This document shows, one piece after another, positions 3,146-51,968 of a stretch of 64,000 nucleotides of DNA. Numbering within the stretch: the first letter of the stretch is position 1; each line of letters opens with the position of its first letter. Location: contig JAJRTR010000174.1 of NCBI GenBank assembly GCA_024278215.1, positions 23,489 through 87,488 of the forward strand, given 5' to 3'. The position numbers were made by a program, and so were the translations under genes. Below the pieces are notes generated by a model. The model did not search any database. It saw nothing but the letters and a program-made list of their open reading frames with translations, and was not told where the DNA came from. This DNA is from a bacterium. GTDB taxonomy: Bacteria > UBP15 > UBA6099 > JAJRTR01.

Positions 3146-3422
3146 ATATTTAGAAATACTTGTGCGAATTCGTTCATTCCCTGAGGATTTTGTGGACATG
3201 ATCCGAACTTGTCTTTAGCCTGGATTTATAGAAGAAGAAATCCGGAAAATCGTCCCGGACACCTATTCTACGCCCGCTGCGGCGGCGGCTCGGGATCTGT
3301 CGCATACCGGCATTTTGCGAAAGAGTCCGTTGCGGCACCGGCTCCCTCACCTTTCACTTGCCGCACCTTGTATTATAAGTTGTTCTTTGGATATTTGAAC
3401 CCGCGTTTGTGAAATATACGGG

Positions 3423-12524: not shown

Positions 12525-12549
12525 TGATTGCCGGGAGGCAAATTGTATT

Positions 12550-24732: not shown

Positions 24733-25677
24733 TTGATGGGACCTATACTGCACCTATTGACCTACGTATGTATGATCGTTTTTGTTGTGGCGGTTGTGCA
24801 TAAATTCAACGAGTACAACAAAATGCCGATGCATCTGCGATGGGAACTCTACCCGGTTGCCCACGAGGGGAAGAAGGCGAGCTATGGCGGTTCGTATTTT
24901 GAAGAAGTCGACTGGTGGGAAAAAGAACGCACCGTAGACATGGGTACGGAAATGAAGCAGATGTCGCAGGAGATTTTATTTCTTGCCGCCGTGAAGGAAC
25001 ACAACCCGAAACTGTGGCTTCGGACATTTCCGTTTCATTTCGGCATGTACAGCCTGATCGGTTTTCTTATGCTTCTTATAGCGGGGGCGCTGCTGGGTGT
25101 GGCCGGTGTCGATATGAGCGGAGGCGGCTTCGGAACTGTGGTGGGCACACTGACAGCCATCGCAGGCTTTGCAGGCGCTGTGCTCGGCGCAATCGGTGCG
25201 CTCGGACTGATCGCGCGCAGGCTTTTCGACGAAGACCTCAAGGACTTCACAAAACCGTCGGATATTTTCAACCTTGTTTTCCTGCTGTCGGTTTTCCTGC
25301 TTATGGCGGCAACAGGAGCGTCCGATCCCTATTTCACCGGACTTCGCGAATATGTTCAGAGTATTATCACTTTCAATATAAACTACGTTCCGTCGAACCC
25401 GGCTGCTGTCGGAGCGATCGCGCTGGCATCGCTTGTGGTCGCATACATTCCTCTCACGCACATGGCGCACTTTGTCGTTAAATATTTCACCTACCACAAC
25501 ATCCGATGGGACGACAGGCCCAACGTGCCCGGTAAGGACCCGATGGGCGATCAGATTGCCGAAGTTCTTCAGTATGAAATAACATGGGCTGCGAGCCACA
25601 TAAACCCAAACGGCACGAAGAAGACCTGGGCCGAAGCAGCCACGGAAAATCCAGAAGAGTTAAAGGAGAGCAAATAA
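24733..25677 (+). CDS. dsrM: DsrM-like NarI-type membrane cytochrome b
   Basis: 314 aa, 5-6 TM with conserved His ('VVHKF', 'PLTHMAHFVVKYFTYH'). Directly precedes dsrK with a 1-nt gap. Confidence 0.65.
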   Translation: MMGPILHLLTYVCMIVFVVAVVHKFNEYNKMPMHLRWELYPVAHEGKKASYGGSYFEEVDWWEKERTVDMGTEMKQMSQEILFLAAVKEHNPKLWLRTFPFHFGMYSLIGFLMLLIAGALLGVAGVDMSGGGFGTVVGTLTAIAGFAGAVLGAIGALGLIARRLFDEDLKDFTKPSDIFNLVFLLSVFLLMAATGASDPYFTGLREYVQSIITFNINYVPSNPAAVGAIALASLVVAYIPLTHMAHFVVKYFTYHNIRWDDRPNVPGKDPMGDQIAEVLQYEITWAASHINPNGTKKTWAEAATENPEELKESK

Positions 25678-25678
25678 C

Positions 25679-27298
25679 ATGGCAAAACCCAAAGACACTA
25701 AACTTTCGCTGAACGATTTTGGGAAACCATGTGACCGCCTTGCGCACATGAACCCTGAAAACCTGATGCCTATGTCCAGGCCGCTCGACTGCCGGGAGCC
25801 CGAGTGGAGTCCTCTCAAGGAGGAGACAAAAGAAAAGTACATGGCATCTCTCGACGACACTCTTGTGCTGAATATTCCCAGACCTCAGAGCAAACGAGAA
25901 GAGCAGGAACTTGTCAGAAAATTTCTTTCCGGTGTGGAAAAGTTGTTTCAGAAGAACAATAACTGGACGTTCCTCCAGCCGCTGGTTTCTACGGTCGAGC
26001 ACTGTGCAAAATGCCAGACATGCAGCGATTCGTGCCATATTTATGAATCGAGCGGAAAGCATGATATGTACCGGCCTACATACCGCTCGGAGATATTCAG
26101 GCGCATCTACCAGGATTACATTCATCCTTCGGGCAGGTACCACAAAACGTGGAAAAACGGTGGTGAGATAAAACTAAGCTGGCTGACGGTGGCCCGTCTG
26201 GGCGAACTCTCCTACAGGTGTAATATATGCCGGCGTTGCGCCCAGTCGTGTCCGATCGGCGCGGATAATTCCGTAGTGGCGCGTGAGATTCGCAAAGTTT
26301 TCAGTCAGGAACTCGGCATCCATACCGTCGAACTGCACGACAACGGCTCGATGCTTCAGCTCAAGGTCGGCTATTCCACGGGAATGAATCCTGAGATCGT
26401 GAAAGACAATATCGAGTTTATCGACGAAGACATGAGCGAAAAAACAGGTATGAAACTCGAGACGCCATGGGATAAGAAAGGTGCCGACATCCTGCTGATC
26501 CACAATGCGGGCGAGATAATGGCATGGCCTGAAAACATAGGCGCGTTCACGGCTATATTCCAGAGCGCAGGCCTCAACTGGACGATGTCCAGTGAAGCGC
26601 TCGGCTACGACAACATCAACTACGGACTCTTCTACGACGACGTGCAGTTTGCGCGTGTAGTGATCAAGCATTTCCAGTGTGCGCAGAAGCTGGGTGTGAG
26701 GAAGATAGTTTTCGGCGAGTGTGGACACGCGACAAAGGCGGCGATGATTATCGCCGACCGCATTCTTACCGGCGACTTGAATATTCCGCGCGAAAGCTGC
26801 TTCCCGCTTTTGAAACAACTCGTCGAGGGCGGCTCTCTGAAGCTCGATCCTTCCAGCAATAACTTTCCGGTCACTCTGCACGATCCGTGCAATCTCGTCC
26901 GCCTGATGGGCATCGTCCAGCCGCAGCGCGACGTTATAAAAAAGATTTGCCCGAAATTCCGCGAGATGACGCCCCACGGCGTGAACAACTACTGTTGTGG
27001 CGGCGGAAGCGGGTTCGCCATCCACTCGGGGCACAACTTCGAAGAGTGGCGTTTCAAGATTTCAGGACGCAAGAAACTTTCGCAGATTCTCAATGCCTTC
27101 AGCGACTGCATCGAGCCGGAAACAAAGAAGTATGTCTGCGCCCCATGCTCGAACTGCAAAGGCCAGATACGAGATATTCTCGGGCATTACAATCTCTGGA
27201 ACGATGCGGGCATCACTTATGGAGGGCTCGTCGAGCTTATCGTCAACGCTATGACGGATGTGAAGCCGAACTATATCGACTGGGACGAAATCATCTGA
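25679..27298 (+). CDS. dsrK: DsrK-like iron-sulfur CCG-domain protein (HdrD-like)
   Basis: Two ferredoxin motifs 'CAKCQTCSDSC' and 'CNICRRCAQSCP'. CCG-domain cysteines 'PCN...YCCGGGSG' and 'CAPCSNCKG'. Confidence 0.8.
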   Translation: MAKPKDTKLSLNDFGKPCDRLAHMNPENLMPMSRPLDCREPEWSPLKEETKEKYMASLDDTLVLNIPRPQSKREEQELVRKFLSGVEKLFQKNNNWTFLQPLVSTVEHCAKCQTCSDSCHIYESSGKHDMYRPTYRSEIFRRIYQDYIHPSGRYHKTWKNGGEIKLSWLTVARLGELSYRCNICRRCAQSCPIGADNSVVAREIRKVFSQELGIHTVELHDNGSMLQLKVGYSTGMNPEIVKDNIEFIDEDMSEKTGMKLETPWDKKGADILLIHNAGEIMAWPENIGAFTAIFQSAGLNWTMSSEALGYDNINYGLFYDDVQFARVVIKHFQCAQKLGVRKIVFGECGHATKAAMIIADRILTGDLNIPRESCFPLLKQLVEGGSLKLDPSSNNFPVTLHDPCNLVRLMGIVQPQRDVIKKICPKFREMTPHGVNNYCCGGGSGFAIHSGHNFEEWRFKISGRKKLSQILNAFSDCIEPETKKYVCAPCSNCKGQIRDILGHYNLWNDAGITYGGLVELIVNAMTDVKPNYIDWDEII

Positions 27299-31063: not shown

Positions 31064-34000
31064 ATGCAAAAATCTAATTTGAAACATTTTGTTGTTGCAA
31101 TTTTCATGATCTGTGCAATCTCTGTGCATGCATCGGCTTCCGCCGATTTTACGTCGAGTTGGACAAGTATCGAAACGAATGAAAGCACGTGCTCGGCGTG
31201 GGGCGATTATGACGGGGACGGCGACCTGGACGTTGTAGTCGGCGACGCAAATACCGGCACTATGCTTTACAGCAACGCGGGCGGCGCGTCTTTCAGTATC
31301 GTGTGGCAGTCGGAGGACGCCGACCTTGTCGTCTCACTTGCCTGGGGCGATTACGACCGTGACGGCGACCTGGATATACTTGTCGGCAACAATCCCGGAA
31401 ACAACAGGGTTTACAGCAACAGCGGCGGCGGAGTTTTCACGCTCGCCTGGACTTCCAGCAGTGTCAGGAGAACAGTCAGGGCGGAGTGGGGAGATGCGGA
31501 CGCCGACGGTGACCTGGACTTTCTCGCGGGCGTCTACGATGAACCTGCAAGGGCTTTCAGGAACACGGGCGCGAGCCAATTTGAATTGATATGGAGTTCG
31601 CAGGAATCCGATCCGACTACATGTATCGACTGGGCCGACGCCGATGCGGACGGCGACCTCGATTTTGTAAAAAGTGCGAACAGCGCCGTCGACCGGGTGT
31701 ACCGGAATGAAGGCGGTTCGGCCTACACTCTTATGTGGTCTTCCGCAAGATCGGATAAGGCGTATTTCACCGAATGGAGCGATTACGACGGCGACGGCGA
31801 CCTTGATTTCGCGGTCGCCAATTACGATGAAAAAGACCGTGTCTACAAAAACTCCGGCAACTGGTATTTCGATATGGTCTGGGCTTCGGCGACCGACTCT
31901 CCCTCAATCGGACTGGCATGGGGCGACTACGACGGCGATGGTGACAGCGATTTGCTCTTCGGCAACTACGCTGCAAGCAATAATGTTGTTGCTTACGCCG
32001 GTTCCGATAATTTCACTGATTCATGGTCTTCGCCGGAAGCCGATTATACATACCAGGTGACATGGGCCGACTACGACGGCGACGGCGATCTCGACCACTT
32101 CGTTTCAAACATCAGCAGCCAGTCAAACCGACTCTACAAGAATAATCTTTCCATATCCAATTCACCGCCTGCGGCCCCGGTGATTACCGGACAGCCGGAC
32201 GGTCTGCCCGGACTCATCACGCTTAGCTGGTCCGCCGCATCCGACGACATCACACCCGCTGTGGACCTCACTTACCAGGTGCGCGTGGGCACTTGCTCTG
32301 GGTGTGGCGGCATAATATCGGGCGCTTTCGCGCCTCCTTTCGGCAATTCGCGACAGACGGAATTCCATAAACTTAATATCCAGGACGACGGTACGTATTA
32401 CTGGTCAGTGGCCGCCGTCGATAGCGCTGGGTTCTCGACCTCGACATGGTATGTCGAGGACTCGTTCACAATATCTGCTCCGAGCGGAACTCCGTACCAG
32501 TCTATATGGACCGGTCCGTCGTCTGACCAGACAACAGCTATTGCGACCGCCGACTACGACGACGACGGTGACCTCGATTTTATTGCCGCCAATGACTCTG
32601 AAGTCAATACAGTGTACAGGTATAACGGTAACAATACTTTCACCGCCGTGTGGTCGTCTCCGGAAACAGACGCCACGAACGACGCGGCATGGGCCGACTA
32701 CGACGGGGACGGCGACCTCGACCATGCTGTCGCCGACAACGGCGCGAACCGCGTCTACTCCAAAACGGACGATTACAACTTCAGCCTCGTCTGGTCATCG
32801 ACGGAAACCTCCAACTCACTCGCGACAGCCTGGGGAGACTACGACCGCGACGGCGATCTCGATTTATTTGCGGGCAACGTCGGCGCGAACCATCTGTACA
32901 GAAACAATTCGGACGACACATTTACTCTCGTCTGGACTTCGACAGAAACAGACACGACTTCGGGCGCGGTATGGCTCGACGCCGACGCCGACGGCGTTCC
33001 GGACATTTTCTGCGCCTCCGACGGCACTTCCGACAGGCTCTACTTGAACAACGGTGACGACACTTTCACTCTCGCATGGTCATCGACTCAGACAGACGCG
33101 ACAAAAGACGCGGCGGCGGCGGATTATGACGGGGACGGACTCGTGGACATTTCCGCGCCTGCGGTCGGCGCGACACAAAACAGGCTCTACTCAAATAACG
33201 GCGACGGCACTTTCACTCTCGCATGGTCATCGACTCAGACAGATGAAACATATTCGTGCACATGGGGCGATTACGACGGTGACGGCGACTGGGACCTGCT
33301 TGCCGGCAACAGCGGCGTCAACAGGGTATACGCGGGCGACGGCGCGGGCGGCTTCACGCTCGAGTGGTCATCCGCTGAAGGCGAAGTCACTTACGCTGCC
33401 GCATGGGGCGATGTGGACGGCGACGGCGACCTTGATATAATCTCCGGTAACAACACTTCGGCCAACAGGCTATATCTTTACACCTCCGATATCTCGAACC
33501 TCAACCCGGCCGCGCCCGTTTTAGTCGCCGGGAGCAACGCGACACTTTCCGGCGCTACCGTTTCCGTTACTTTCAACTGGAACGCTGCCGTCGACGACAC
33601 GACCGCCCCTGTCTCGATGATGTACCATCTGCGTGCCGGCACATGTTCCGGTTGCGACGACATCGTTTCCGGAGCTTACGCTTCACCAGTTCCCAATGTC
33701 GGCGCGACAACTTCCATTTCCATCGTTTTCGATGCTACCGGCACATACTACTGGTCTGTTGCTGCCATCGACAACACTTCTCTAAGTGCGTCATCATGGA
33801 GTTCGGAGGATAGCTTCGAGATTATCGAGCCCACGGGAACACAAACGCCGTTCGAGTCGATATGGACCGGAACGGATATCAACCTGACTCGAGATGCCGC
33901 GTGGGGCGACTACGACGGCGACGGCGATCTTGATTTCTTTGCAGCGAACTATACGCAGGGAAATTTCGTATACCGCAACGACGGCAGCGCTACTTTCAAT

Positions 34001-37000
34001 AAAGTTTACGAAGACAACCTTTTCTCATATACAACATCCGGTGCGTGGGGTGACTACGACGGCGACGGCGATCTCGATTTGCTGTTCTCAAACTATAATG
34101 AAAGCAATTACGTTTTTAAAAACACGGGAAGTGACGATTTCGTGTCGGCATGGTCCACAACGCAGGCGAATTCAACAAACGACGCCGAGTGGGGCGATAT
34201 GGACGGCGACGGCGATCTCGATTTCATCGCGGGCAATGACGGCCAGTCGATTTTAGTTTTCAGCAACAACGGATCGGGCGGTTTCACGTATGGCTGGGGC
34301 TCGACGGAAACGAATAATACGAGTTCTATTTCAGTGGTCGATTTCGATAAGGACGGTGACCTCGATTTCATCGCGGTGAACAACGGACAGTCCGATATTA
34401 TCTACGATAACGGCGGAGGCGGCACTTTCAGCGTCGCCTGGACGTCTGCTGAAACAGACAGCGGCAGCGGCGGCGCGTGGGGTGACTATGACGGCGACGG
34501 CGACTACGACATAGCCGTAGCCAACAACACGCAGTCGAATCGCGTTTACTCGAACGCCGGGGCCGCAAACTTCACATCGGTCTGGACATCCACGGAGGCG
34601 GATGCGTCGCACACTGCCGCGTGGGGCGACTACGACGGCGACGGCGATCTCGACCTGCTTTTCGGCAACTATTATACGACTTCCGACACCGACAGAGTCT
34701 ACACCAACGCAGGCGGCGACAATTTCCCGCTGGGCTGGTCGGCGACAAATCAGGAATACACGCGCGCGGCGGCCTGGGGCGATTACGACGGCGACGGCGA
34801 TCTCGATTTCATCGCGGCCAACGAAGACGGCTCCGACAGGATTTACAGAAACAATCTTTCCATCTCCAACACCGCTCCGCCCGCTCCCACACTGACGTTA
34901 ATTGACGACGGTGACCCGGGTACGGTCGTTTTTCAATGGGCTGCCACTTCCGATGACATCACCCCCGACAGCCTGCTTGCATTCCAGTTGCGCGTCGGCA
35001 CGTGCACGGGCTGCGACGACATTATAAGCGGCGAATTCGCGCCTCCTTTTGTCAACATGGGCGCTACCGGCTCCTACCCGATGATACTCGGCAACGGCGA
35101 TTATTACTGGTCCATTGCTTCTGTCGACACCACAGGTTTCTCTGTTTCCTCGTGGAGCACAGAAGACGACTTTCACCTCGAACATATACCGGCAGTCCCA
35201 TTCGAGTCCACATGGCAAAGCACCGAAAGCAACAGGACGGCGGCACTCGCATTGGGCGATTTCGACGGCGACAGCGACCTCGACCACATTGCTGCCGACT
35301 CCGATTCGATTCGCCTTTACCGCAACACAGGATCGTATTCTTTCACGCTCGCCTGGTCATCGTCGTCGATGACAAACAACATGGATGCCGCGTGGGGCGA
35401 CTACGACGGCGACGGCGATCTCGATTTCGCTGTTTCCACCGGCTCGGGCGGTTACGTGTCGGTCTATGAGCAGACAACTTACGCCGCCTTTTCATCCGTA
35501 TGGGCTTCGTCTCAAACAGATAAAACATACAGTGTCGCGTGGGCCGACTGCGACGCGGACGGCGACCTCGACCTTCTAACCGCCAATCTCGCGGACGGCT
35601 CGACTGGTTCGAACAACAGGGTATACCGTAACGAAGGCCGCGGCGACTTTGTCGTCAACTGGACATCTGCCGAGGCCGACATAACTTATGATGCCGCGTG
35701 GGGCGATTACGATGGCGACGGCTACAGGGATATTGTCGCGGGAAACGACGGCGCGAACAGGATTTACCGAAATGTCGCATGTGACTACTTCACCATCGTG
35801 TGGACTTCCGTCGAAAGCGACAGGACGACCGGCGTCGCGTGGATGGACTACGACGGCGACGGCGACCTTGATTTCGCCGCGGGCAGCGCGGACGGCAACG
35901 ACCGTGTTTATAATAACGACGGCGCGGGCGGTTTCTCCGCCGTGTGGACTTCCACCGCCACATCGACGACTTCATCAGTCGCATGGGGCGACTACAACGC
36001 CGACGGCTACCCCGATCTCGCTTCAGTCAACAACAGTTCTATCGCCGATTCGGAACATGTTTACGGCAACAACGGCGACGATACCTTTTCGACAGCGTGG
36101 AACTCGCCTCTCGATGAGGAATCGCAGGACGTCGCATGGGGCGACATCGACGGCGACGGCGACCTCGACCTGCTCATAGCTTCCGGCGGCGACACATCGG
36201 CGGATGCGAATATCCTGTATGTCAATTACGTCGAGCCGGCGAACAACGCACCTACTACTCCGTCCGTAACCGTGGTTCCAGACGGTTTCACCGGCTATGT
36301 CGACCTGCAATGGACTGCTTCAACTGATGATGTTACTCCGTCTGATGAAATCCGCTACATCGTCCGGGCCGGTACTTGCTCCGGTTGCAACGACATCATT
36401 TCCGGCCTCTATTCGCCGCCTCTGACCAATGCCGGTACGGCAACTAGTTACAGGGTACATATCGCCGGTGCGGATACATATTACTGGCAGGTTAAGGCGA
36501 TAGATATGGCAGGCTTCCGCGAATCAGGCTGGTCGAACGCCGATGATTTCGTCTTGACAGACCGTTTCTCATCCGCATGGACCGGAAGCGCATATTACAA
36601 TATTGAAGATGTCGCGTGGGGCGACTACGACGGCGACGGCGACCTCGACATAGCTGCGGCGGTAAACGGTACGCCCAACCTTGTTATCGAAAACAGCGGT
36701 GGCGGCAGTTTTTCGACGGTTTGGTCTTCTTCCGAAAGCGATTACACACGCTCCGCCGCCTGGGGCGACGCGGACAACGACGGCGATCTCGATATTCTCG
36801 TGGGCAACACCGATTCGGCTTCGGGCGGCGACCAGAACCGCGTCTATTCCAACAACGGCGACGGCACGTTTACTGTCACATGGTCCACCTTTGAAATGAA
36901 CCGTACTTACGATGCTGTGTTTACAGACTGCGACGCGGACGGCGACCTCGATATTGTCGCCGCTAATGAATATGAAAACATAATTTACACCAATAATGGC

Positions 37001-40000
37001 GGTAGTTCGTTCACTTCAAGTTCATTGTCTTCACACCAGGAGCGGACACGGGCGCTATCTCCCGCCGACTTCGATGCCGACGGCGACTTCGACTTGCTCG
37101 AAGGCAACTACGGCGCGCCCAACAGGGTATTCAGAAACGACGGCTCGGGCAATTTCTCCGAACTGTGGGCCTCTTCCGGCAGTGAATATACCTCTGCTGT
37201 CGCATGGGCCGACACAGACGGCGACGGCGACCTCGACGCTTTCTTCGGCAACAGTTACGTGGGTGCACTGAACTATATTAATGTTAATGACGGCGCGGGT
37301 TCGTTCTCCGCCTCATGGACATCGCGCGACGCCGACGAAACTTATGACGCCGCGTTCGGCGACACAGACGGCGACGGGGACCTCGACCTGATTACCGCCA
37401 ACAGCGATTCTGATTCCACCCGCGATAATTACAGGCTCATCCGCGTTTACTCGAATTCCGGCGGCAACTTGTTCGCGGCATCGGCAAACATGGGAGCCGG
37501 CGATTATGCCGTTGCTGTCGCGCTCGGCGACTATGACGGCGACGGCGACCTCGATATCCTCGAAGGTTCGAGCGACGGCGGCGACGACATGCCTGTTCGT
37601 GTGTATATGAATAACATGGACCCGTCGAATGCCGCTCCATCCGCGCCGTCTGTTATCAAAACAGACAACCAGGTTCTCTCAGCCGCTACTTCTCCGATCT
37701 CCATAGCGTGGTCCGCACCGTCCGACGACATCACAGTCACCGCGCTCCTGTCATATCAGTTACGTATCGGCACATGCCCCGGCTGCAGCGATGTTATGTC
37801 GGGCGCTTTCGCGCCTCCCGGCGGCAATATCGGCGCGACGACTGCTGTCAATATCAACATGTCCGATTCTGGCACGTACTACTGGTCGGTCGCGGCGGTG
37901 GACAACACAGGCTTCGCGACAGGCGCATGGTCGGACGAGGAATTTTTCGCCGTTTCACTTCCCCTGTTCGATACAGGTTGGACGAGTCCCGAAGGTGGAA
38001 CATGCAGGGATGCCGCGGCAGGTGACTTCGACGGCGACGGCGACCTCGATATTGCATCGAGCTTCGACGCGCAGAATATGGTTTATGAGAATAACGGCAG
38101 TGGCTCTTTCAGCGACGCATGGACATCCGCCGAGTCTGAAAACACGATGGAAGTCGCATGGGGCGACTACGACAACGACGGCGACCCGGACATACTTGTC
38201 GCCTCCGCAAACGGGCCTGCGAGGATATATAAAAACACTGGCGGCACCTTCTCTACTGCATGGTCATCCATTATGAGCGTGCAGGGCGGCGGCGTCTCAT
38301 GGGCCGACCTCGACAACGATGGCGACCTCGACTTCGCCGCCTCGAGCTACGGCATAAACAATCTCGTCTACAGAAACGACGGCGGCGATTCTTTCACCCT
38401 TTCATGGCTTTCCAGCGACACAGACAACACAACTGACGTCGAATGCGCCGACTTCGACAATGACGGCGACAGCGACATTGCCGCTGCGAATGAGTCCGGA
38501 CCTGTGAAGCTTTACGCAAACGACGGCGCGGGCAGTTTCATTGCTGTCTGGACATCCTCCGACACCGGCTACACAAGTGGGATTTCGACCGGAGATTACG
38601 ACGGTGACGGCAATTTGGATATGCTCACGGTGGCTGGTTCTTCATACTACAACAGAGTGTACCGGGGCGGTGGCGGCGGCACATTCACAGCCGTGTGGAC
38701 CGCTGGAGAGGACGGTCCGTTTTCCGGCGGCGCGTGGGGCGACTACGACGCGGACGGCGACCTCGATTTCTTCGTCTCCTACAGCGGCACAGACAGTCGT
38801 GGCAGCCACGTTTATCGCAATACAGGTAGTGATTCCTTCAACCTCGTGTGGGCGTCGCTGAATGATGACGCGTCGTACAGCGCCGCCTTCGGCGATTTCG
38901 ACGGCGACGGCAATATCGATCTGCTCTCGGCGAATACCGGCGTAAGAACATGGACGAATATGTCCACCGTATCGAACAGCGCGCCCGCGCAGCCGACTGT
39001 AACAGCCGTCGGCGATCAGGAATTCCACATCTCGGCCACTCCTGCCGTAACACTGTCATGGACCGCGCCCTCCGACGACTACACACCCTCGAATTCACTC
39101 ACATACCAGGTGCGAGTCGGCACTTGTTCGGGATGTAGCGACATCGTCTCCGACACTTTCGTGCCGCCGTGGGGCAACGCCGGCCCTTCGACGTCATACA
39201 CTTTCAACGCGACCGCATCCGGCACTTATTACTGGAGTGTATCCGCCGTGGACACTTCGGGGTTCCTCGTGGGCGCGTCGAGCGCGGAGGATGTCTTCGA
39301 TGTTTCATTTTCGATGCTCGGCACAAGGACACCGTTCGATTACTCGTGGTACGGCAGCGCGTCCGACTACAGCAGCGGCAGCGCCTGGGGCGACTACGAC
39401 GCCGACGGCGACCTCGACATCCTGATTTCAGACGCCGGCGCGTCCGCCGGCAACAGGATATACTCGAACGACGGCGGCAACACCTTCACGCTCGCGTGGA
39501 CGGCGACTGAATGGAACACAACGGAAGCCGCCGCCTGGGCTGACTACGACGGTGACGGCGACCTCGACGCTGTTTTCGTTTCAGGCGGTTCGGGCGAGCC
39601 GAATTATGTTTACCGAAATGTTGGCGCGGGCGGCTTCGTAGTCGGTTGGACTTCGACGGAAACCGAGCCTTCGCAGGCCGTTGCCATCGGCGATTTCGAC
39701 GGCGATGGCGATCTTGATATCTTCGTCGGAAATAACAGCGCGTCTGTTCCTGACCGCGTTTATAAAAATGTTTCCACAGGTTTCACCACCGCCTGGACTT
39801 CGTCTTCATACTACACGACGCGCGCCGTGGATATGGCAGACTACAACCTCGACGGTCGCCCCGACTTACTGCTCGGCAACAGCGGCTCTGCCATGGAACC
39901 GATTGTCATATATTCGAACAAAGGCGGCGAGTGTTTCACCGAAGCCTGGACTTCGTCCGAGCAGGAATACACTTCCGCCGTCGAGTGGGGCGACTACGAC

Positions 40001-42571
40001 GGCGACGGCGACCTCGACATCGCCGCCGGCAACTGGATGGGCGACGAAACTATCAGGATATACGCCAACATCAGCGGTAATTACTCTTCCGTCTGGACCC
40101 GCTCCAGCGTCGACAGAACCGTCGATGTCGCCTGGGGCGACTACGACGGCGATGGCGACCTCGATCTGCTCGCCGGCAACGCGGAAGTCAACTATAAATA
40201 TAATCGCATCTTCACAAACGACGGCGGCGATTCTTTCTCTCTCTACTGGTCTTCTGCCGAAGACGAGAGTACCGGTGATGTCGACTGGGCGGATTACGAC
40301 AACGACGGCGACCTTGACTTCTTCGCTGCAAACAACGGTATCGACAGGGTTTATACGAACAACGACAACCCGTCGAACACCCCCCCGTCCGCGCCGGTCG
40401 TCAATGCTGTGCCGGACGGCTATACCGGTCGAATATCCTTCTCGTGGTCGGCGGCTTCGGACGACATAACAGGCGGCAGCGCACTTAACTACCAGGTGCG
40501 CATCGGCACATGTTCAGCTTGCGACGACATCATGCCGGGCGAATTCTCACCACCACGCACGAATGCAGGAGCGACTACTTCCATCACTCTCGGCATCGCC
40601 GAGACCGGAACATATTACTGGTCGGTAGCCGCCGTTGACGCCACCGGTTTCTCCGTATCGTCATGGAGCGCGGAGGACACTTTCACATTGACTGAGCCCT
40701 CGGGGACATTCTCGACATTCTGGCTGGACATGACTTCTGACGAGACGCGCGGCGTCGCCTGGGGCGATTACGACGGTGACGGCTACCTCGATTTCGCCGC
40801 TGGTAATTACGGGCAGCCCAACCGGATTTTCCGAAACAGCGGCGGTACTGCTTTCGTGTTTACGTGGAAAACCACTGAGGCCGACAACACTACCGGCGTC
40901 GCATGGGGCGACTACAACGGCGACGGCTACCTCGACCTGCTCGCACCTTCTTACAACAGCAAAAACCGCGTTTACCGCTACGACGGCGGCGACTTCACAC
41001 TCGCATGGTCTTCGGATAATTCGGATACGACCACGGACGCCCTGTGGGGTGACAGCGACAACGACGGCGACCTCGATATTTTCGTTGCCGACAAAGGACA
41101 GGCACTTCGCGTTCTCAACAATTCTAATGGGAGTTTCTCTTCCGTGTGGACTTCGCTTCAGGCCTACAATACGAATTCTATTGACTGCGGTGATTTCGAC
41201 GGCGACGGCGACCTCGATATCATTGCAGGCATCGGCGGTTCCGCTTCGAACAGAATTTATGAAAATTCAGGCAGCAACTTATTTGTGCTTGTCTGGTCGT
41301 CCGCGCAGACTTACTCGACTGAATATGTGCTGTGGGGCGATTACGACGGCGATGGCGACCTCGATATTTTCTCTGCAAATACCGGCGGTTCGGACCCGAA
41401 TGTCATTTATTCAAATTACGGTCTGCGCACCTTTGTGCAAACGTGGGCCTCTGCTGAAATGGAAACATCACAGGCAGCCGCACACGGCGACTACGACGGC
41501 GACGGCGATTTCGACATCGTTGTCGGAAACACCGATGAAACTTCCAACCGCGTCTACAGCAACGACGGTTCCGGCAGTTTCACTCTCCAGTGGACATCCC
41601 CGCATACGGAAGACACGTACAGCATCGCTTTCGGCGACTTAGACAACGACGGCGACATCGACATGCTCGCGGGCGGCGACACGCTGCGCGTTTATGAAAA
41701 CAACACAGACCCCGCGAACACCGCGCCCGTCGCTTCGGATTTAACCGCTGTTTCGGATGCGGAAATTCAGGGAGATTCTCTCGATGTCGCTTTTCTGTGG
41801 TCCGACGCCGGCGACGATCTCACCGCGGCACCCCTGCTGTCGTATCAACTCCGAATCGGCACATGCTCGGGTTGCGACGACATCGTATCCGGCACATTCG
41901 TGCCCCCGTCCGGCAATATCACCGCCACTCAAACTTTTATAACTTTCAGCACTGCCGGTGATTACTACTGGTCTGTGCGCGCTGTGGACAGCACGGGCTT
42001 CTCCGCCGGAAGCTGGAGTTCGGAGGACACTTTCACACTCACTTTCGGCGCTCAGCAGACGACAACATTGACCTCCGGCTGGAATCTCATGACATTCCCC
42101 GGCGACATAGCTTCGAGCACTATCAGCTCATCTCTCAGTACTTACTCTGATGTCGGCGACACATTCGGTTTCTCCGGCGGCAAACTTATTGAAGGAACAA
42201 GCGTTAATGTCGAACTCGCTTCAGGCTACTGGGTATACGCGGAAAACTCCGTGGAAATAACACTCGGCGGCGCGTCGGCTACGCCAGACTCTCAAACCGT
42301 CACTGTCTCTCCACTCGACAACGGCTGGAACCTCGTCGGAAATCCTTATGTGAAATATCTGAAATGGGCCGACAACATAACCATCGACTGCGGCTCAGGA
42401 GACACAGTTCTTTCCGGTGCCGTGACAGCAGGATATACCGACGGCAACATATATGAATATTCGGGGTCAGGGTATGAAAAAATATCCAGCGGCGACTACA
42501 TAAAACCATGGAACGCATTTTTTATTAGGATCGAGCAAACCTGCTGCTCGATGAAGCTCACACTTGATTAA
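31064..42571 (+). CDS. Giant secreted FG-GAP/VCBS-repeat protein (3835 aa), eight [7-bladed propeller + FN3-like] modules
   Basis: Signal peptide 'MQKSNLKHFVVAIFMICAISVHASASA'. About 60 copies of 'AWGDYDGDGDLD..(N)..NRVY.N.G.G.FT..W.S'. Eight copies of an FN3-like unit '(LSWSA.SDDITP...YQLRIGTCSGCDDIVSG.F.PP...T......GTYYWSVAAVD.TGFS.S.WS)'. Confidence 0.85.
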   Translation: MQKSNLKHFVVAIFMICAISVHASASADFTSSWTSIETNESTCSAWGDYDGDGDLDVVVGDANTGTMLYSNAGGASFSIVWQSEDADLVVSLAWGDYDRDGDLDILVGNNPGNNRVYSNSGGGVFTLAWTSSSVRRTVRAEWGDADADGDLDFLAGVYDEPARAFRNTGASQFELIWSSQESDPTTCIDWADADADGDLDFVKSANSAVDRVYRNEGGSAYTLMWSSARSDKAYFTEWSDYDGDGDLDFAVANYDEKDRVYKNSGNWYFDMVWASATDSPSIGLAWGDYDGDGDSDLLFGNYAASNNVVAYAGSDNFTDSWSSPEADYTYQVTWADYDGDGDLDHFVSNISSQSNRLYKNNLSISNSPPAAPVITGQPDGLPGLITLSWSAASDDITPAVDLTYQVRVGTCSGCGGIISGAFAPPFGNSRQTEFHKLNIQDDGTYYWSVAAVDSAGFSTSTWYVEDSFTISAPSGTPYQSIWTGPSSDQTTAIATADYDDDGDLDFIAANDSEVNTVYRYNGNNTFTAVWSSPETDATNDAAWADYDGDGDLDHAVADNGANRVYSKTDDYNFSLVWSSTETSNSLATAWGDYDRDGDLDLFAGNVGANHLYRNNSDDTFTLVWTSTETDTTSGAVWLDADADGVPDIFCASDGTSDRLYLNNGDDTFTLAWSSTQTDATKDAAAADYDGDGLVDISAPAVGATQNRLYSNNGDGTFTLAWSSTQTDETYSCTWGDYDGDGDWDLLAGNSGVNRVYAGDGAGGFTLEWSSAEGEVTYAAAWGDVDGDGDLDIISGNNTSANRLYLYTSDISNLNPAAPVLVAGSNATLSGATVSVTFNWNAAVDDTTAPVSMMYHLRAGTCSGCDDIVSGAYASPVPNVGATTSISIVFDATGTYYWSVAAIDNTSLSASSWSSEDSFEIIEPTGTQTPFESIWTGTDINLTRDAAWGDYDGDGDLDFFAANYTQGNFVYRNDGSATFNKVYEDNLFSYTTSGAWGDYDGDGDLDLLFSNYNESNYVFKNTGSDDFVSAWSTTQANSTNDAEWGDMDGDGDLDFIAGNDGQSILVFSNNGSGGFTYGWGSTETNNTSSISVVDFDKDGDLDFIAVNNGQSDIIYDNGGGGTFSVAWTSAETDSGSGGAWGDYDGDGDYDIAVANNTQSNRVYSNAGAANFTSVWTSTEADASHTAAWGDYDGDGDLDLLFGNYYTTSDTDRVYTNAGGDNFPLGWSATNQEYTRAAAWGDYDGDGDLDFIAANEDGSDRIYRNNLSISNTAPPAPTLTLIDDGDPGTVVFQWAATSDDITPDSLLAFQLRVGTCTGCDDIISGEFAPPFVNMGATGSYPMILGNGDYYWSIASVDTTGFSVSSWSTEDDFHLEHIPAVPFESTWQSTESNRTAALALGDFDGDSDLDHIAADSDSIRLYRNTGSYSFTLAWSSSSMTNNMDAAWGDYDGDGDLDFAVSTGSGGYVSVYEQTTYAAFSSVWASSQTDKTYSVAWADCDADGDLDLLTANLADGSTGSNNRVYRNEGRGDFVVNWTSAEADITYDAAWGDYDGDGYRDIVAGNDGANRIYRNVACDYFTIVWTSVESDRTTGVAWMDYDGDGDLDFAAGSADGNDRVYNNDGAGGFSAVWTSTATSTTSSVAWGDYNADGYPDLASVNNSSIADSEHVYGNNGDDTFSTAWNSPLDEESQDVAWGDIDGDGDLDLLIASGGDTSADANILYVNYVEPANNAPTTPSVTVVPDGFTGYVDLQWTASTDDVTPSDEIRYIVRAGTCSGCNDIISGLYSPPLTNAGTATSYRVHIAGADTYYWQVKAIDMAGFRESGWSNADDFVLTDRFSSAWTGSAYYNIEDVAWGDYDGDGDLDIAAAVNGTPNLVIENSGGGSFSTVWSSSESDYTRSAAWGDADNDGDLDILVGNTDSASGGDQNRVYSNNGDGTFTVTWSTFEMNRTYDAVFTDCDADGDLDIVAANEYENIIYTNNGGSSFTSSSLSSHQERTRALSPADFDADGDFDLLEGNYGAPNRVFRNDGSGNFSELWASSGSEYTSAVAWADTDGDGDLDAFFGNSYVGALNYINVNDGAGSFSASWTSRDADETYDAAFGDTDGDGDLDLITANSDSDSTRDNYRLIRVYSNSGGNLFAASANMGAGDYAVAVALGDYDGDGDLDILEGSSDGGDDMPVRVYMNNMDPSNAAPSAPSVIKTDNQVLSAATSPISIAWSAPSDDITVTALLSYQLRIGTCPGCSDVMSGAFAPPGGNIGATTAVNINMSDSGTYYWSVAAVDNTGFATGAWSDEEFFAVSLPLFDTGWTSPEGGTCRDAAAGDFDGDGDLDIASSFDAQNMVYENNGSGSFSDAWTSAESENTMEVAWGDYDNDGDPDILVASANGPARIYKNTGGTFSTAWSSIMSVQGGGVSWADLDNDGDLDFAASSYGINNLVYRNDGGDSFTLSWLSSDTDNTTDVECADFDNDGDSDIAAANESGPVKLYANDGAGSFIAVWTSSDTGYTSGISTGDYDGDGNLDMLTVAGSSYYNRVYRGGGGGTFTAVWTAGEDGPFSGGAWGDYDADGDLDFFVSYSGTDSRGSHVYRNTGSDSFNLVWASLNDDASYSAAFGDFDGDGNIDLLSANTGVRTWTNMSTVSNSAPAQPTVTAVGDQEFHISATPAVTLSWTAPSDDYTPSNSLTYQVRVGTCSGCSDIVSDTFVPPWGNAGPSTSYTFNATASGTYYWSVSAVDTSGFLVGASSAEDVFDVSFSMLGTRTPFDYSWYGSASDYSSGSAWGDYDADGDLDILISDAGASAGNRIYSNDGGNTFTLAWTATEWNTTEAAAWADYDGDGDLDAVFVSGGSGEPNYVYRNVGAGGFVVGWTSTETEPSQAVAIGDFDGDGDLDIFVGNNSASVPDRVYKNVSTGFTTAWTSSSYYTTRAVDMADYNLDGRPDLLLGNSGSAMEPIVIYSNKGGECFTEAWTSSEQEYTSAVEWGDYDGDGDLDIAAGNWMGDETIRIYANISGNYSSVWTRSSVDRTVDVAWGDYDGDGDLDLLAGNAEVNYKYNRIFTNDGGDSFSLYWSSAEDESTGDVDWADYDNDGDLDFFAANNGIDRVYTNNDNPSNTPPSAPVVNAVPDGYTGRISFSWSAASDDITGGSALNYQVRIGTCSACDDIMPGEFSPPRTNAGATTSITLGIAETGTYYWSVAAVDATGFSVSSWSAEDTFTLTEPSGTFSTFWLDMTSDETRGVAWGDYDGDGYLDFAAGNYGQPNRIFRNSGGTAFVFTWKTTEADNTTGVAWGDYNGDGYLDLLAPSYNSKNRVYRYDGGDFTLAWSSDNSDTTTDALWGDSDNDGDLDIFVADKGQALRVLNNSNGSFSSVWTSLQAYNTNSIDCGDFDGDGDLDIIAGIGGSASNRIYENSGSNLFVLVWSSAQTYSTEYVLWGDYDGDGDLDIFSANTGGSDPNVIYSNYGLRTFVQTWASAEMETSQAAAHGDYDGDGDFDIVVGNTDETSNRVYSNDGSGSFTLQWTSPHTEDTYSIAFGDLDNDGDIDMLAGGDTLRVYENNTDPANTAPVASDLTAVSDAEIQGDSLDVAFLWSDAGDDLTAAPLLSYQLRIGTCSGCDDIVSGTFVPPSGNITATQTFITFSTAGDYYWSVRAVDSTGFSAGSWSSEDTFTLTFGAQQTTTLTSGWNLMTFPGDIASSTISSSLSTYSDVGDTFGFSGGKLIEGTSVNVELASGYWVYAENSVEITLGGASATPDSQTVTVSPLDNGWNLVGNPYVKYLKWADNITIDCGSGDTVLSGAVTAGYTDGNIYEYSGSGYEKISSGDYIKPWNAFFIRIEQTCCSMKLTLD

Positions 42572-43933: not shown

Positions 43934-45538
43934 ATGAGGGAAAGCGGTATGCTGTGCGAGGAAGGCGCATGTGTGCAGCCGTGGCGCTATGGCGATCCCG
44001 AGTGGTCCCGCGCCGGGGACGAGCCGCTCGCCACACCCGAATCACTGTCTGAGAAAGCTGCTTACTATGAGGAGATATCAAGACGACTGCATGTGCATCC
44101 GGAATTGAAATGGATGATGGGCGCTGAATTGCCCTGCAAGGAGATCGAATGCGGCGCGGGCCAGTCGCCGCCGTGCCTCGATTGCTCAAAATCCGATATA
44201 TCAATTGATGAAGCTACCTGGCGCGATGTCGTCAGATGGCGTTCGAGCGAAAACGACGGCCTGTGGAGCGCTCTCTACATGGCCGCTGAAGCGTTCAGGT
44301 ACGCCGCCACACGCGACGACGAGGCGCTCTCTATGATCAGGACGCTGCTCGAAGGCGACAACACCAGGATGGAAATCACAGGTGTGCCGGGAAATTTCAC
44401 AAGGCAGTACATACCTCCCGGAATAAATGGGCTTTCATGTCCGGAGAATAAAAGCAGCTATATACCGGATGTGGAAAAAGACGATAACAAGTGGGTGCGT
44501 ATCGGCAATGACGGATGCGCTGAATATGTTGACGCAGAAACATTGGAATGGGTTACGACCGACCACTGCATCGACAAAAAATACGCCGGTTGGTGCTGGC
44601 TGGACAACACGAGCAAAGACGAGTATAGCGGCAACATGTTCGCGCTCGGCGCGGTCTATAAACTCGTTGACGATCCGCAAATACGGGAGATGGTCAAAGG
44701 CCTGCTCTACAGGATCGGAGTCCACCTTGTCAAAAACGATATGGCTTTCACCGACTGGGACGGTCGTATATGCGAACACGGACGCATCTTCGCAGGCACG
44801 TTCGGCGACTATCCCGGCTTCAACGCCGCCATGGCGCTCGATTTCATGAAGATCATTGCTGTTGCAACCGGCGACGCGCGATTTCAGAAGTATTTCGACA
44901 CCTGCCTGATGCAGAAAAACAAACGGCGGCGCTGCTTTAAAAAGTCGATGTCCGCGCCAAGGCCATATACGGAATTTCTCCCTTTCAACGGCATGTTTCC
45001 CGGCTTCGAAGGCTGCAAGGCGAACTACAACAACATCTCGATGCACATGCTGAGCATGCACAACCTTGTCTGGTTCGAGCACGACCCTGCCCTGCGCGAA
45101 AAATACCAGGTAAGCCTCGACAGGGACGTGTTCAGAGCGCCGGGCCGGCCCCGCGCCGTAATAAAACAGAACAATCCATGGTTCGATTTCATCTGGGCAT
45201 CGCAGAAAAAACTCGGCCCGCTCTCCGACGGACCCGCTTTCGATGTCGTAGATAACGCGGTCCGCATGCTACGCCAGTTCCCGGCGCGCCAGCACCCCAT
45301 GAACATTGAATGCCCGCCTGATAAATGTAAAAACTATTGCAATGACCGCTTTAAAAGGCCTGTGTCGGATTACCCGAGACAAGCGGCGGAAAGGTGTCCC
45401 GGCAGATTCCTGTGGTGGTCCGATCCCTACCGCATGGGCGGCTGCACCGAAAACACGCGCATAATCTACCCACCTGCCGACTATCTCCTGCCCTACTGGA
45501 TGGGGCGCTACTACGGATTCATCAAAGAAGATCAATGA
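43934..45538 (+). CDS. Cys-rich hypothetical protein, probably secreted. The real N-terminus likely lies ~55 aa upstream.
   Basis: In-frame upstream sequence back to the stop at 43748 encodes a signal-peptide-like 'KTFLITVYAALCVTFFFSHTSLA|DRCAEGAWECSEDGYTLKTCTKGTWITREC' with no ATG/GTG/TTG in frame. Confidence 0.45.
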   Translation: MRESGMLCEEGACVQPWRYGDPEWSRAGDEPLATPESLSEKAAYYEEISRRLHVHPELKWMMGAELPCKEIECGAGQSPPCLDCSKSDISIDEATWRDVVRWRSSENDGLWSALYMAAEAFRYAATRDDEALSMIRTLLEGDNTRMEITGVPGNFTRQYIPPGINGLSCPENKSSYIPDVEKDDNKWVRIGNDGCAEYVDAETLEWVTTDHCIDKKYAGWCWLDNTSKDEYSGNMFALGAVYKLVDDPQIREMVKGLLYRIGVHLVKNDMAFTDWDGRICEHGRIFAGTFGDYPGFNAAMALDFMKIIAVATGDARFQKYFDTCLMQKNKRRRCFKKSMSAPRPYTEFLPFNGMFPGFEGCKANYNNISMHMLSMHNLVWFEHDPALREKYQVSLDRDVFRAPGRPRAVIKQNNPWFDFIWASQKKLGPLSDGPAFDVVDNAVRMLRQFPARQHPMNIECPPDKCKNYCNDRFKRPVSDYPRQAAERCPGRFLWWSDPYRMGGCTENTRIIYPPADYLLPYWMGRYYGFIKEDQ

Positions 45539-46141: not shown

Positions 46142-48298
46142 ATGGAGAAAAACGTGAAGCAGGTTTTAATACAGAACGGGCAGGCGGTCGTTGAAGATGT
46201 GCCGCCGCCACAACCCGAATCCGGCACAATTGTTGTCCGTGTACTGAACTCGTGTATTTCGCCCGGCACAGAAGGCAGCGGAATGAAAGAGTCGGCGGAA
46301 CCACTCTGGAAGCGTGCCCTGAAGAATCCCGGCAAAGTGAAGCAGGCGCTTCATATGCTGGCGACTTCAGGTTTTTCGCACACAAGAAGTGTCGTGCAGG
46401 GCAAACTCCAGTCCGGGTATGCTACGGGCTATTCGGCAGCTGGCAGAGTAATGGTCGTCGGCGCTGGTATAGACGACATCAAGGAGGGCGACATCGTGGC
46501 CTGCGCCGGCGCTCAATGCGCCCATCACGCCGAGATCATCAGGGTACCGCGCAACCTCGCCGTGCAGGTGCCAGACGGACTCGACGCCTCGCACGCAAGC
46601 ACCGTAGCACTCGGCGCTATAGCCATGCAGGGCGTGCGCCGCGCGAAACCGTCGCTTGGTGAAAACTTTGTCGTCATCGGGCTCGGCGTTATCGGGCAAC
46701 TTACCGCTCAATTTCTCAAAACGAACGGCTGCCGGGTTATCGGCGCAGATCTCGATCCCGAAAGATCACGCATCGCCATGGAACTCGGTATGGACATCGA
46801 ACTCAAGCCGGACGACGGTCCCGGCGTCGAGAATGTGATGCGACTGACCGGCGGCCTCGGCGCGGACGGTGTCATCATTACAGCTTCCACAAGCTCGCAT
46901 GAAGTCCTCTCCACCGCGTTTCAGATGTGCCGCCGCAAGGGCCGTGTCGTACTTGTCGGCGTTGTCGGCATGACTATGAACAGGGAAGACATTTACGCGA
47001 AGGAACTCGACTTCTTTATTTCCACCTCTTACGGCCCGGGCCGCTACGACAACAATTACGAGGAAAAAGGACACGATTATCCGCCATCTTATGTGCGCTG
47101 GACCGAAAACAGGAACATGTGGGAATATCTCCGCCTGCTTGCCGACGGTAGAATAAATATCGAGCCTCTAATATCCGCAACGCATGTTATAGACGATGCT
47201 CCCACAGCTTATGCGGCGATAGCGGACGGCGAACACAGGCCGATGATCACACTTCTTTCTTATCCCGAAAACAGCAACGCGGCCACCGGCGGCAGGTTAC
47301 TCAATCCTTCCGCTTCGCCCTCACAAAAGAGTGTTCTTAATCTCGCGCTTGCAGGAGCGGGCGGCTTCGCGCACGGGATGCACCTTCCCAATCTGAGCAG
47401 AATGAAGAACCTTTATTGTCTTCATGCCGTTATGAGCCGCACCGGTCACAACGCGAAGGCGACAGCGAAACAGTTCGGCGCAAAATATGCGACGACCGAT
47501 TACCGCGAGATCGTCTCCGACGCGGATGTCGACGCTGTTCTTATCTGCACACGGCATGACTCACACGCGAAGATGACACTCGACGCACTTCGAGCCGGAA
47601 AACACGTTATCGTCGAAAAACCGCTTGCCCTCGACCGCGATGAAATGAGTGCTGTCGAAGAGTTCTATAATAACGCCGGCGGCGAATCCGGCGCGCCGGT
47701 CCTGCTGACCGGCTTCAACAGGCGCTTTTCGAAATTCTCGAGGCGTATCGCAGAAATAATTGCAGGCAGGAAAAACCCGATAATCATCAACTACCGTATG
47801 AACGCAGGCTATATCCCACTCGACAGCTGGCTCCACAACGAACAGGGCGGCGGCCGCAATATAGGCGAAGCCTGCCATATTTACGACCTGTTCACGTTTT
47901 TCACGAACGCGAAAGCCGTTGCAGTTGACGCAAGATCAATCACCGCCGAGCCCGGTTATTACTCGAACAGGGACAATTTCATCGCCACTGTTTCCTTCGA
48001 CGATGGCTCGATTGCAACCCTCACATACACTGCGCTCGGATCGAAAGACTTCCCTAAAGAGACTATGGAAATATATTGTGACGGAAAAATACTTTCGATG
48101 TGCGATTACAAAAAACTTACTGTTTACGGCACGAACCTGAGCGGCATCGAATCATCAGCGTTCGACAAGGGGCACCGCGAAGAACTCGAAGAGTTCGCGC
48201 GCGCTGTGAAGGGCGGCGGCGCGTGGCCGATACCGTTGTGGCAGCAGCTACAGGCAATGGAAATAGCTTTCAGGGTTGAAGAAATGTTGACGCGGTGA
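46142..48298 (+). CDS. Bi-domain oxidoreductase: N-terminal zinc-type MDR dehydrogenase fused to C-terminal Gfo/Idh/MocA oxidoreductase
   Basis: MDR GroES-like plus Rossmann 'VIGLGVIGQL'. Gfo/Idh/MocA 'LALAGAGGFAHGMHLP', 'VLICTRHDSHA', 'AGKHVIVEKPLA'. Confidence 0.8.
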   Translation: MEKNVKQVLIQNGQAVVEDVPPPQPESGTIVVRVLNSCISPGTEGSGMKESAEPLWKRALKNPGKVKQALHMLATSGFSHTRSVVQGKLQSGYATGYSAAGRVMVVGAGIDDIKEGDIVACAGAQCAHHAEIIRVPRNLAVQVPDGLDASHASTVALGAIAMQGVRRAKPSLGENFVVIGLGVIGQLTAQFLKTNGCRVIGADLDPERSRIAMELGMDIELKPDDGPGVENVMRLTGGLGADGVIITASTSSHEVLSTAFQMCRRKGRVVLVGVVGMTMNREDIYAKELDFFISTSYGPGRYDNNYEEKGHDYPPSYVRWTENRNMWEYLRLLADGRINIEPLISATHVIDDAPTAYAAIADGEHRPMITLLSYPENSNAATGGRLLNPSASPSQKSVLNLALAGAGGFAHGMHLPNLSRMKNLYCLHAVMSRTGHNAKATAKQFGAKYATTDYREIVSDADVDAVLICTRHDSHAKMTLDALRAGKHVIVEKPLALDRDEMSAVEEFYNNAGGESGAPVLLTGFNRRFSKFSRRIAEIIAGRKNPIIINYRMNAGYIPLDSWLHNEQGGGRNIGEACHIYDLFTFFTNAKAVAVDARSITAEPGYYSNRDNFIATVSFDDGSIATLTYTALGSKDFPKETMEIYCDGKILSMCDYKKLTVYGTNLSGIESSAFDKGHREELEEFARAVKGGGAWPIPLWQQLQAMEIAFRVEEMLTR

Positions 48299-48369
48299 GC
48301 TGCATGTTACGTACCTTTACTCACAGTGAGTGCGAACAGACTCATATCATTTTGAATGGATAAAACAAG

Positions 48370-50268: not shown

Positions 50269-50322
50269 CGACGGGCTCCACGCACCTTTCGCACATTGTC
50301 CGGCCTGTTCCAGTTGGAATGA

Positions 50323-51945: not shown

Positions 51946-51968
51946 CTGCCGCGTGATAATTTTCTGCT

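Follow-up and report, generated by a model that had tools for sequence, protein, structure and literature searches.

A giant secreted protein with eight predicted integrin-type propellers and a C-terminal GWNL domain from an uncurated family

Introduction

What kind of protein is made from a single, repetitive 11.5 kb open reading frame (ORF), and what might the domain at its very end do? These questions are raised by a 64,000-nucleotide stretch of bacterial DNA (contig JAJRTR010000174.1, positions 23,489 to 87,488; hereafter, the window), in which one gene encodes a protein of 3835 amino acids (aa). We found that this protein starts with a predicted signal peptide, continues as what appears to be a chain of eight integrin-type propellers, and ends in a domain of ~170 aa, here called GWNL after a motif in its sequence, which belongs to a family of its own. 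Below we describe the anatomy of the protein, the spread of the module and of the GWNL domain, and the readings of GWNL that the evidence favors or disfavors.

Results

The giant gene and its signal peptide

The ORF begins at the first ATG downstream of an in-frame stop codon and its frame is unbroken over 3835 codons. It is one genuine gene, in agreement with the first-pass annotation of this DNA, which had described a single ORF of this size from the sequence.

31064..42571, + strand: whole gene for the secreted FG-GAP propeller array, 3835 aa, with the stop codon at 42569-42571 (ORF and Pfam matches)
31064..31144, + strand: predicted Sec-type signal peptide, aa 1-27, MQKSNLKHFVVAIFMICAISVHASASA (from sequence features only)

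The protein contains a single hydrophobic segment, as the Kyte-Doolittle hydropathy (KD19) exceeds 1.6 at aa 5-29 and in no other window. This segment is followed by AXA-type cleavage sites (VHA and ASA) and a lipobox is absent, a combination that fits a Sec signal peptide; a signal peptide had been proposed earlier. In the whole protein, 493 Asp and 109 Glu residues stand against 126 Lys and Arg residues, giving a net charge of about -476, and the mass is ~400 kDa (roughly 414 kDa from a per-residue average). The GC content of the gene is 0.57, while that of the third codon positions (GC3) is 0.667 and lies inside the range of the neighboring genes. Codon position 2 accounts for the raised GC, through an amino-acid composition rich in Gly, Ala, Asp and Ser, and for this reason the GC bump is not taken as a sign of horizontal transfer.

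Propeller and FN3-like modules

The Pfam family FG-GAP_3 matches 49 stretches of the protein above its gathering score (E 1.4e-280, 906.8 bits with a cutoff of 26.9), and the FG-GAP family matches as well (E 1.1e-92, 303.2 bits). The blades number 56 in a strict 8 x 7 register, with calcium loops spaced 47-53 aa apart, and 52 of the 56 carry a strict DxDxDGxxD loop. The modules, each consisting of a propeller and a following FN3-like domain, recur with a regular period of 450-466 aa.

31142..32515, + strand: module 1, propeller calcium loops at aa 48-336, FN3-like domain at aa ~361-484
32516..33865, + strand: module 2, propeller calcium loops at aa 497-783, FN3-like domain at aa ~809-934
33866..35221, + strand: module 3, propeller at aa 949-1240, FN3-like domain at aa ~1264-1385
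35222..36598, + strand: module 4, propeller at aa 1399-1694 with a degenerate loop in blade 1 (DFDGDSDLD), FN3-like domain at aa ~1726-1841
36599..37996, + strand: module 5, propeller at aa 1854-2156, FN3-like domain at aa ~2184-2301
37997..39346, + strand: module 6, propeller at aa 2321-2611, FN3-like domain at aa ~2635-2761
39347..40732, + strand: module 7, propeller at aa 2777-3077, FN3-like domain at aa ~3103-3220
40733..42046, + strand: module 8, propeller at aa 3235-3525, FN3-like domain at aa ~3560-3661

The loop register and the two Pfam matches support a chain of eight predicted integrin-type seven-bladed propellers, each with an FN3-like domain after it. The earlier picture of eight super-repeats of ~450 aa arranged as beads on a string therefore stands; its estimate of about 60 blades was right as to their FG-GAP type, while the count is exactly 8 x 7 = 56. 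Blades at equivalent positions of different modules resemble each other more than other pairs of blades do, which fits a duplication of whole propeller-FN3 modules.

The domain between the propellers is ~120 aa long, and its eight copies share an invariant W, DD, R.GTC..C, P, N, YYW and D, including a GTCxGC (CxxC) insert. When a profile of the eight copies was compared with the PDB, only FN3 domains matched, and weakly (E 0.029-0.23): chitinase A1 (1k85) at E 0.029, and MyBP-C and titin at E 0.16-0.23. The Pfam fn3 model did not match this domain, the sole Pfam match being Ig_Rha78A_N at E 0.11. The 'FN3-like' label is thus reasonable but not proven: of the earlier claim that an FN3-like domain closes each super-repeat, the eight domains are confirmed, while their FN3 identity rests on weak profile matches. 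A phmmer search of one module against PDB sequences gave nothing at E <= 1e-3. Matches to SaoC, YmfL, IMP2_N, Peptidase_G2 and DUF1737 in NCBIfam and Pfam lie far below the cutoffs and were rejected as chance matches.

Bacterial integrin-type propellers have been described with at most two in tandem, and a cytoplasmic location was assumed for them (Chouhan et al. 2011, PMC3192720); such propellers were later placed in the VCBS supercluster (Pereira & Lupas 2021, PMC8023676), and recently amplified, highly repetitive bacterial members appear in both studies. The window protein resembles the bacterial FG-GAP/VCBS propellers (PF13517/PF01839) in that its propellers consist of seven repeats, each blade has a DxDxDG loop and the blades are more regular than those of human integrins. 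It differs from the propellers of PMC3192720 in that its signal peptide is followed by what appear to be eight propellers, each joined to an FN3-like domain.

Assembly of the repetitive gene

A repetitive gene invites the suspicion that the ORF is an assembly artefact, namely a collapsed, expanded or chimeric join of smaller FG-GAP genes, and the exact giant protein is indeed on record from one NCBI contig only (108,291 bp). The first-pass annotation had reported motifs of 30-40 nt recurring near-identically dozens of times and had warned that the copy number may be mis-assembled. The repeats proved to be far less alike than that. The 36-mer quoted there occurs 10 times at <= 3 mismatches and once exactly, no exact DNA repeat of >= 40 nt is present within the gene, and 35-mers recur at most 3 times. 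Modules are 39-48% identical to one another in protein and 51-57% in DNA, and in a self-blastn of the gene the best match was 73% over 189 nt, with none reaching 85% over 100 nt.

Such divergence is far above what misleads assemblers, making repeat collapse unlikely and taking away the ground for the warning. An artefact is also hard to reconcile with the unbroken frame, the regular module period and the unique N-terminal signal and C-terminal domain that flank the array, or with the relatives of 4-7 modules, which have been assembled independently many times. The closest relative of the protein (P0002; 2453 aa, five modules and the same end domain) was found as identical assemblies in three independent samples, 2 from JGI and 1 from ENA. 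The GC3 of the gene, which does not stand out from that of its neighbors, likewise speaks for one sound gene. We conclude that mis-assembly of the giant gene is unlikely, and we give almost no credence to the idea that the ORF as a whole is an artefact.

Relatives of the array and their C-terminal ends

A metagenome scan with a profile of the FN3-like linker returned at least 440 relatives of the propeller-FN3 module. Arrays of 4-7 modules were present in 12 of the 79 loci that were fetched, one of them (L126) encoding at least 4265 aa with 7 modules. Rarity of the array, which might be read into the first-pass annotation, is not supported: arrays with 4-7 copies of the same module occur in many metagenomes. 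The eight-module window protein is the largest array among those found here, and its class is common but experimentally unstudied.

We tallied the C-termini of 62 distinct complete relatives. A sorting domain of the type IX secretion system (T9SS) ends 27 of them, 3 of which also contain an internal GWNL domain upstream; 9 end directly after the FN3-like domain, 4 in a dockerin-like domain, 2 in a hydrophobic helix and 12 in something else, and a single relative (P0002) shares the end of the window protein. These counts show that the propeller-FN3 module is widespread and has interchangeable C-terminal ends. The multi-module arrays L126, L144, L145 and L107 illustrate this: they are large and built from the same propeller and GTCxGC/YYWSV module, but end in Por_Secre_tail-type domains, whereas the window protein ends in GWNL.

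The remaining 7 of the 62 relatives (L122, L134, L087, L099, L124, L088 and L120) have a recurring '..(P)RFYR..' within the last ~12 residues. This tail was not recognised as a known sorting signal.

Sequence, fold and family of the GWNL domain

42047..42568, + strand: C-terminal GWNL domain, aa 3662-3835, two-lobed and all-beta in the predicted model, from an uncurated family

The GWNL domain reads GWNL(I/V)S.P ... GYW ... GWNL(I/V)GNP ... PW.GY, so that each unit of ~85 aa begins with GWNL(I/V)xxP and finishes with GYW or PWxGY. The two halves align to each other with an hhalign probability of 96.6% (E 5e-10), which indicates that the domain is an internal duplication of the ~85-residue unit. 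The last ~174 aa of the protein match nothing in Pfam and NCBIfam even at E <= 10, in line with the earlier impression that the C-terminus fits no known model, and none of 32 aligned family members matches these databases, T9SS models included.

An exhaustive HMMER search of 1.84 billion representatives recovered 334 clusters at E <= 1e-3, 52 of them at E <= 1e-10, with matches spanning the full ~165 aa and with P0002 as the best relative (E 1e-37). A word-indexed homologue search with the C-terminal 174 aa had returned nothing, and all relatives came from the exhaustive search. In the 32-sequence alignment, W22, W72, G103, W104 and P110 are invariant. With this alignment, AlphaFold (AF2) gave the structure prediction that the first-pass annotation had called for, a confident two-lobed, all-beta model with a predicted local distance difference score (pLDDT) of 90.5 and a predicted template modelling score (pTM) of 0.83; the model from the single sequence was unusable (pLDDT 36).

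The sequence profile found no match in the PDB, and a Foldseek search of the model against solved structures gave a best E of 0.078 with a template modelling (TM) score <= 0.22, which is not significant. GWNL is thus a genuine domain family that is missing from Pfam and NCBIfam and has no solved structural relative in the PDB. A literature search for the motif returned nothing relevant.

The sole significant structural match of the model came from the BFVD database: A0A8D9C8P8, a 587-aa protein of an uncultured marine phage (E 7.9e-6, TMq 0.68), which is presumably another member of the GWNL family, judging from its predicted structure. The label of this entry is 'putative hemin binding protein'.

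Position, partners and spread of the GWNL domain

The position of GWNL within proteins was counted in the 150 best representatives, and these counts bear on a reading in which GWNL is a new C-terminal sorting or secretion domain, equivalent to the C-terminal domain (CTD) of T9SS cargo and read by an undescribed outer-membrane translocation or attachment machinery in diderms other than Bacteroidota. In 116 of the 150, only 3-12 residues separate GWNL from the C-terminus, and the passengers are unrelated, as would be expected of a sorting domain. About 30 of the 150, however, have it internally or directly behind the signal peptide (e.g. L005 and P0055), and 31 have two copies. GWNL is therefore a portable domain of secreted multidomain proteins, which it usually closes, although it can also lie elsewhere in them. 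That many of these proteins are exported is consistent with the hydrophobic N-termini of 77 of the 98 complete members.

The phylum makes a difference to the position. Relatives were found by a genome scan in unclassified metagenome-assembled genomes (MAGs), Armatimonadota, Chloroflexota, Chlorobiota and many Bacteroidota and Rhodothermota, and named matches came also from Coprothermobacterota and a Methanospirillaceae archaeon. In Bacteroidota and Rhodothermota, GWNL is internal and is followed by ~170 residues and then by Por_Secre_tail. The same cassette ends in FlgD_ig in one Armatimonadota protein and in a second GWNL domain in P0003-type proteins. This exchange of the last domain speaks for a sorting role, and so does the T9SS CTD that occupies the same slot in the 27 array relatives counted above. 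On the other hand, GWNL and a real T9SS CTD coexist in one polypeptide, and a domain that is portable, duplicable and compatible with a true T9SS CTD is difficult to see as an obligate, cleaved C-terminal secretion signal.

The ~170 residues of the cassette are themselves of note. A second uncurated domain of this length lies between GWNL and the terminal domain in L007, L015, L027, L018, P0003, P0005, P0006 and P0008, the first four being from Bacteroidota or Rhodothermota. It is marked by recurring 'D..(E)PP' and 'W.F.V......V.L.WD' stretches and had no Pfam match in the proteins scanned.

The partner domains of GWNL are diverse and extracellular (Big_2, fn3, dockerin, Glucodextran_B, BNR, and PQQ and LVIVD propellers), with a predicted glycoside hydrolase (GH43/DUF377 label) among the partner proteins. 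In another reading, GWNL is a distal, substrate-recognising tip, similar to a lectin or a carbohydrate-binding module (CBM), that binds an external polymer or another cell while the protein is released or held elsewhere. The hydrolase partner, the flexible position and the duplication, which are also seen with CBMs, would suit such a tip. Conservation falls mainly on aromatic residues (Trp and Tyr), and the weak best fold matches of the model are binding beta-sandwiches (CBM35, CBM6, ACE and HA70). Against it, GWNL sits at the membrane-proximal end, beside the CTD, in T9SS proteins, and the window protein shows no other anchor. On balance, we regard a distal tip as quite unlikely.

Sorting signals and secretion machinery

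We compared the C-terminus of the window protein with the known sorting signals. An hhalign comparison of the GWNL profile with 19 T9SS CTDs gave a probability of < 1%. In the last 60 aa, no tripartite sorting signal was seen: the maximum KD(15) is 0.68, LPxTG and PEP motifs are absent and NCBIfam gives no match. The earlier statement that the end is none of LPXTG, PEP-CTERM or T9SS CTD is borne out, with neither a model match nor a motif or helix, and the lack of any known sorting model for GWNL would also be expected of a new sorting domain. RTX motifs (GGxGxDxUx) occur nowhere in the giant protein, which has a Sec-type N-terminus. An autotransporter (type V secretion, T5SS) barrel is not indicated either, as Pfam has no match in the last 174 aa and the predicted model is a two-lobed, sandwich-like structure of ~170 aa that ends in Asp.

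Secretion machinery was likewise not found beside the gene. Among the large ORFs scanned in the window, no family of secretion machinery matched, no synteny exists between the window and the P0002 locus that would point to a conserved partner gene, and neither a C25 peptidase nor any other neighbor of the window gene was found near members of the GWNL family. No cognate secretion system, which the first-pass annotation had proposed to look for elsewhere in the genome, was thus found next to the giant gene within the window, and the lack of conserved neighboring machinery around the window gene, P0002 or other members also counts against a sorting domain. Taking these points together with its internal copies, we consider a new sorting domain unlikely.

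The genes that are conserved at other GWNL loci encode surface proteins and are absent from the window. In L003, L004, L006 and L001, which are unclassified MAGs, a protein with C-terminal GWNL heads a conserved run of surface-type proteins, comprising one with a Cu_amine_oxidN1 domain and two with FecR and Big_1 domains; the run looks like an envelope-protein operon.

A Peptidase_C25 protein is encoded in the window at 15148-16950 (+ strand; 600 aa, E 2.7e-64, with a hydrophobic N-terminus). It belongs to the gingipain/PorU family, whose member PorU acts as sortase in the T9SS. The window showed no T9SS genes, and we found no link between this gene and the giant gene.

Genomic context of the window

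The giant gene follows a flavin reductase gene, and a convergent gene for an Mrp/NUBPL ATPase lies 17 nt downstream. The window also holds an AcrB-type pump, subunits of a 2-hydroxyacyl-CoA dehydratase, and a glycyl-radical enzyme together with its activase. Shortly after the giant gene, at 46142-54296, comes a polysaccharide-type set consisting of an ADH_zinc_N/GFO_IDH_MocA fusion, an AsnB-like amidotransferase, a GT4 glycosyltransferase and a heparinase II/III-like protein. The P0002 locus has an AsnB-like gene nearby as well (26% identical), which may be a coincidence or a link to the matrix. Two further ORFs have no Pfam match, one at 43934-45538 (+ strand; 534 aa, a singleton cluster) and one at 55864-57495 (- strand; 543 aa).

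Two regions, 10213-13974 and 24733-27298, contain dsrA/dsrB-like genes (two NIR_SIR proteins), a dsrN-like gene for a cobyrinic-acid diamide synthase/amidase, and DsrM/DsrK-like genes. This set suggests an anaerobic dissimilatory sulfite or sulfate reducer. The best matches of release factor 2 (RF2) are unclassified 'bacterium' MAGs at 64-65% identity, followed by Firmicutes, Limnochordia and Armatimonadota at 57-61%; the organism possibly belongs to an undescribed dsr-bearing lineage, given the identity to unclassified MAGs. The RF2 ORF (7832-8845, - strand) begins at position 15 of the PCRF model and may have the programmed +1 frameshift that is usual for prfB, together with a short upstream ORF.

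Discussion

The anatomy described above leads us to a reading that we consider probable, though by no means secure, in which the window protein, exported through Sec and stiffened by calcium, belongs to the surface or matrix, with its eight propellers acting as binding platforms and its GWNL domain as a non-catalytic binding module that fixes one end of the protein to a polymer of the envelope or matrix. An extremely acidic protein of ~400 kDa would be exported through Sec as a string of eight rigid modules. The calcium loops in the blades would stiffen the array, which may serve as an adhesin or scaffold at the surface or in the matrix, with eight propeller faces presented for binding. GWNL would then be the tether between one end of the array and a polymer, for which a glycan or some other constituent of the cell's own envelope or matrix is most plausible, and would fill the slot that the T9SS sorting domain occupies in Bacteroidota relatives without being a cleaved sorting signal.

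The choice between this tether and a sorting domain depends mainly on where GWNL is found. Its internal copies, ahead of a genuine T9SS CTD, and its N-terminal copies favor a portable module for binding or anchoring over a purely C-terminal sorting or secretion signal. Of the earlier suggestion of a new anchoring or secretion domain, the anchoring half thus fares better than the secretion half. In lineages other than Bacteroidota, however, GWNL prefers the protein end and takes the slot of the sorting domain, so that an anchoring or a sorting role is possible. Some points weigh against the tether: its binding role is deduced from architecture and position only; the preference for the very last residues outside Bacteroidota would also fit sorting; and the type of envelope is uncertain, in that the AcrB-type pump suggests a diderm while the lineage is unclassified.

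Several known systems bear comparison. The T9SS CTD (PF18962, Por_Secre_tail; equivalent model TIGR04183) and GWNL are both all-beta, close large secreted proteins of diverse kinds at the very C-terminus and use the same slot in relatives. In contrast, the T9SS CTD is ~80 aa long and GWNL ~170 aa, the two are not joined by any HMM match or by the profile comparison given above, and GWNL can also lie internally or share a polypeptide with a true T9SS CTD. RTX adhesins (LapA, SiiE and MpIBP among them) use type 1 secretion (T1SS) and have BIg-type repeats, no Sec signal, and RTX nonapeptides and a T1SS signal at the C-terminus. The window protein is like them in its beads-on-a-string design, its strong acidity, calcium in every repeat and a presumed role in adhesion or matrix, but has a Sec signal and propellers and lacks a GGxGxD motif. 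SLH, CWB2 and LysM are non-catalytic, internally repeated modules that bind surface proteins to the envelope and occur at either end of diverse secreted passengers, usually at one terminus. GWNL would resemble them in use only, as an analogy, with no relationship of sequence or fold.

A more far-reaching suggestion, which we think is probably wrong, is that Armatimonadota-like and unclassified diderm lineages have an undescribed pathway of surface display, in which GWNL serves as the handle for recognition or attachment, the counterpart of the T9SS CTD of Bacteroidota. If it were true, the GWNL fold would be the pathway's first structural marker.

Giant repeat proteins shape the attachment and matrix building of uncultured bacteria, and arrays of FG-GAP and FN3 type are experimentally unstudied. 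The practical gain from this locus is a cleanly delimited GWNL family, with hundreds of clusters reaching from Armatimonadota to an archaeal MAG, and with a curated model of it thousands of surface proteins now called 'hypothetical' would be better annotated. As GWNL closes proteins in some phyla and precedes the T9SS CTD in others, the family offers a natural experiment on how proteins are retained at the surface.

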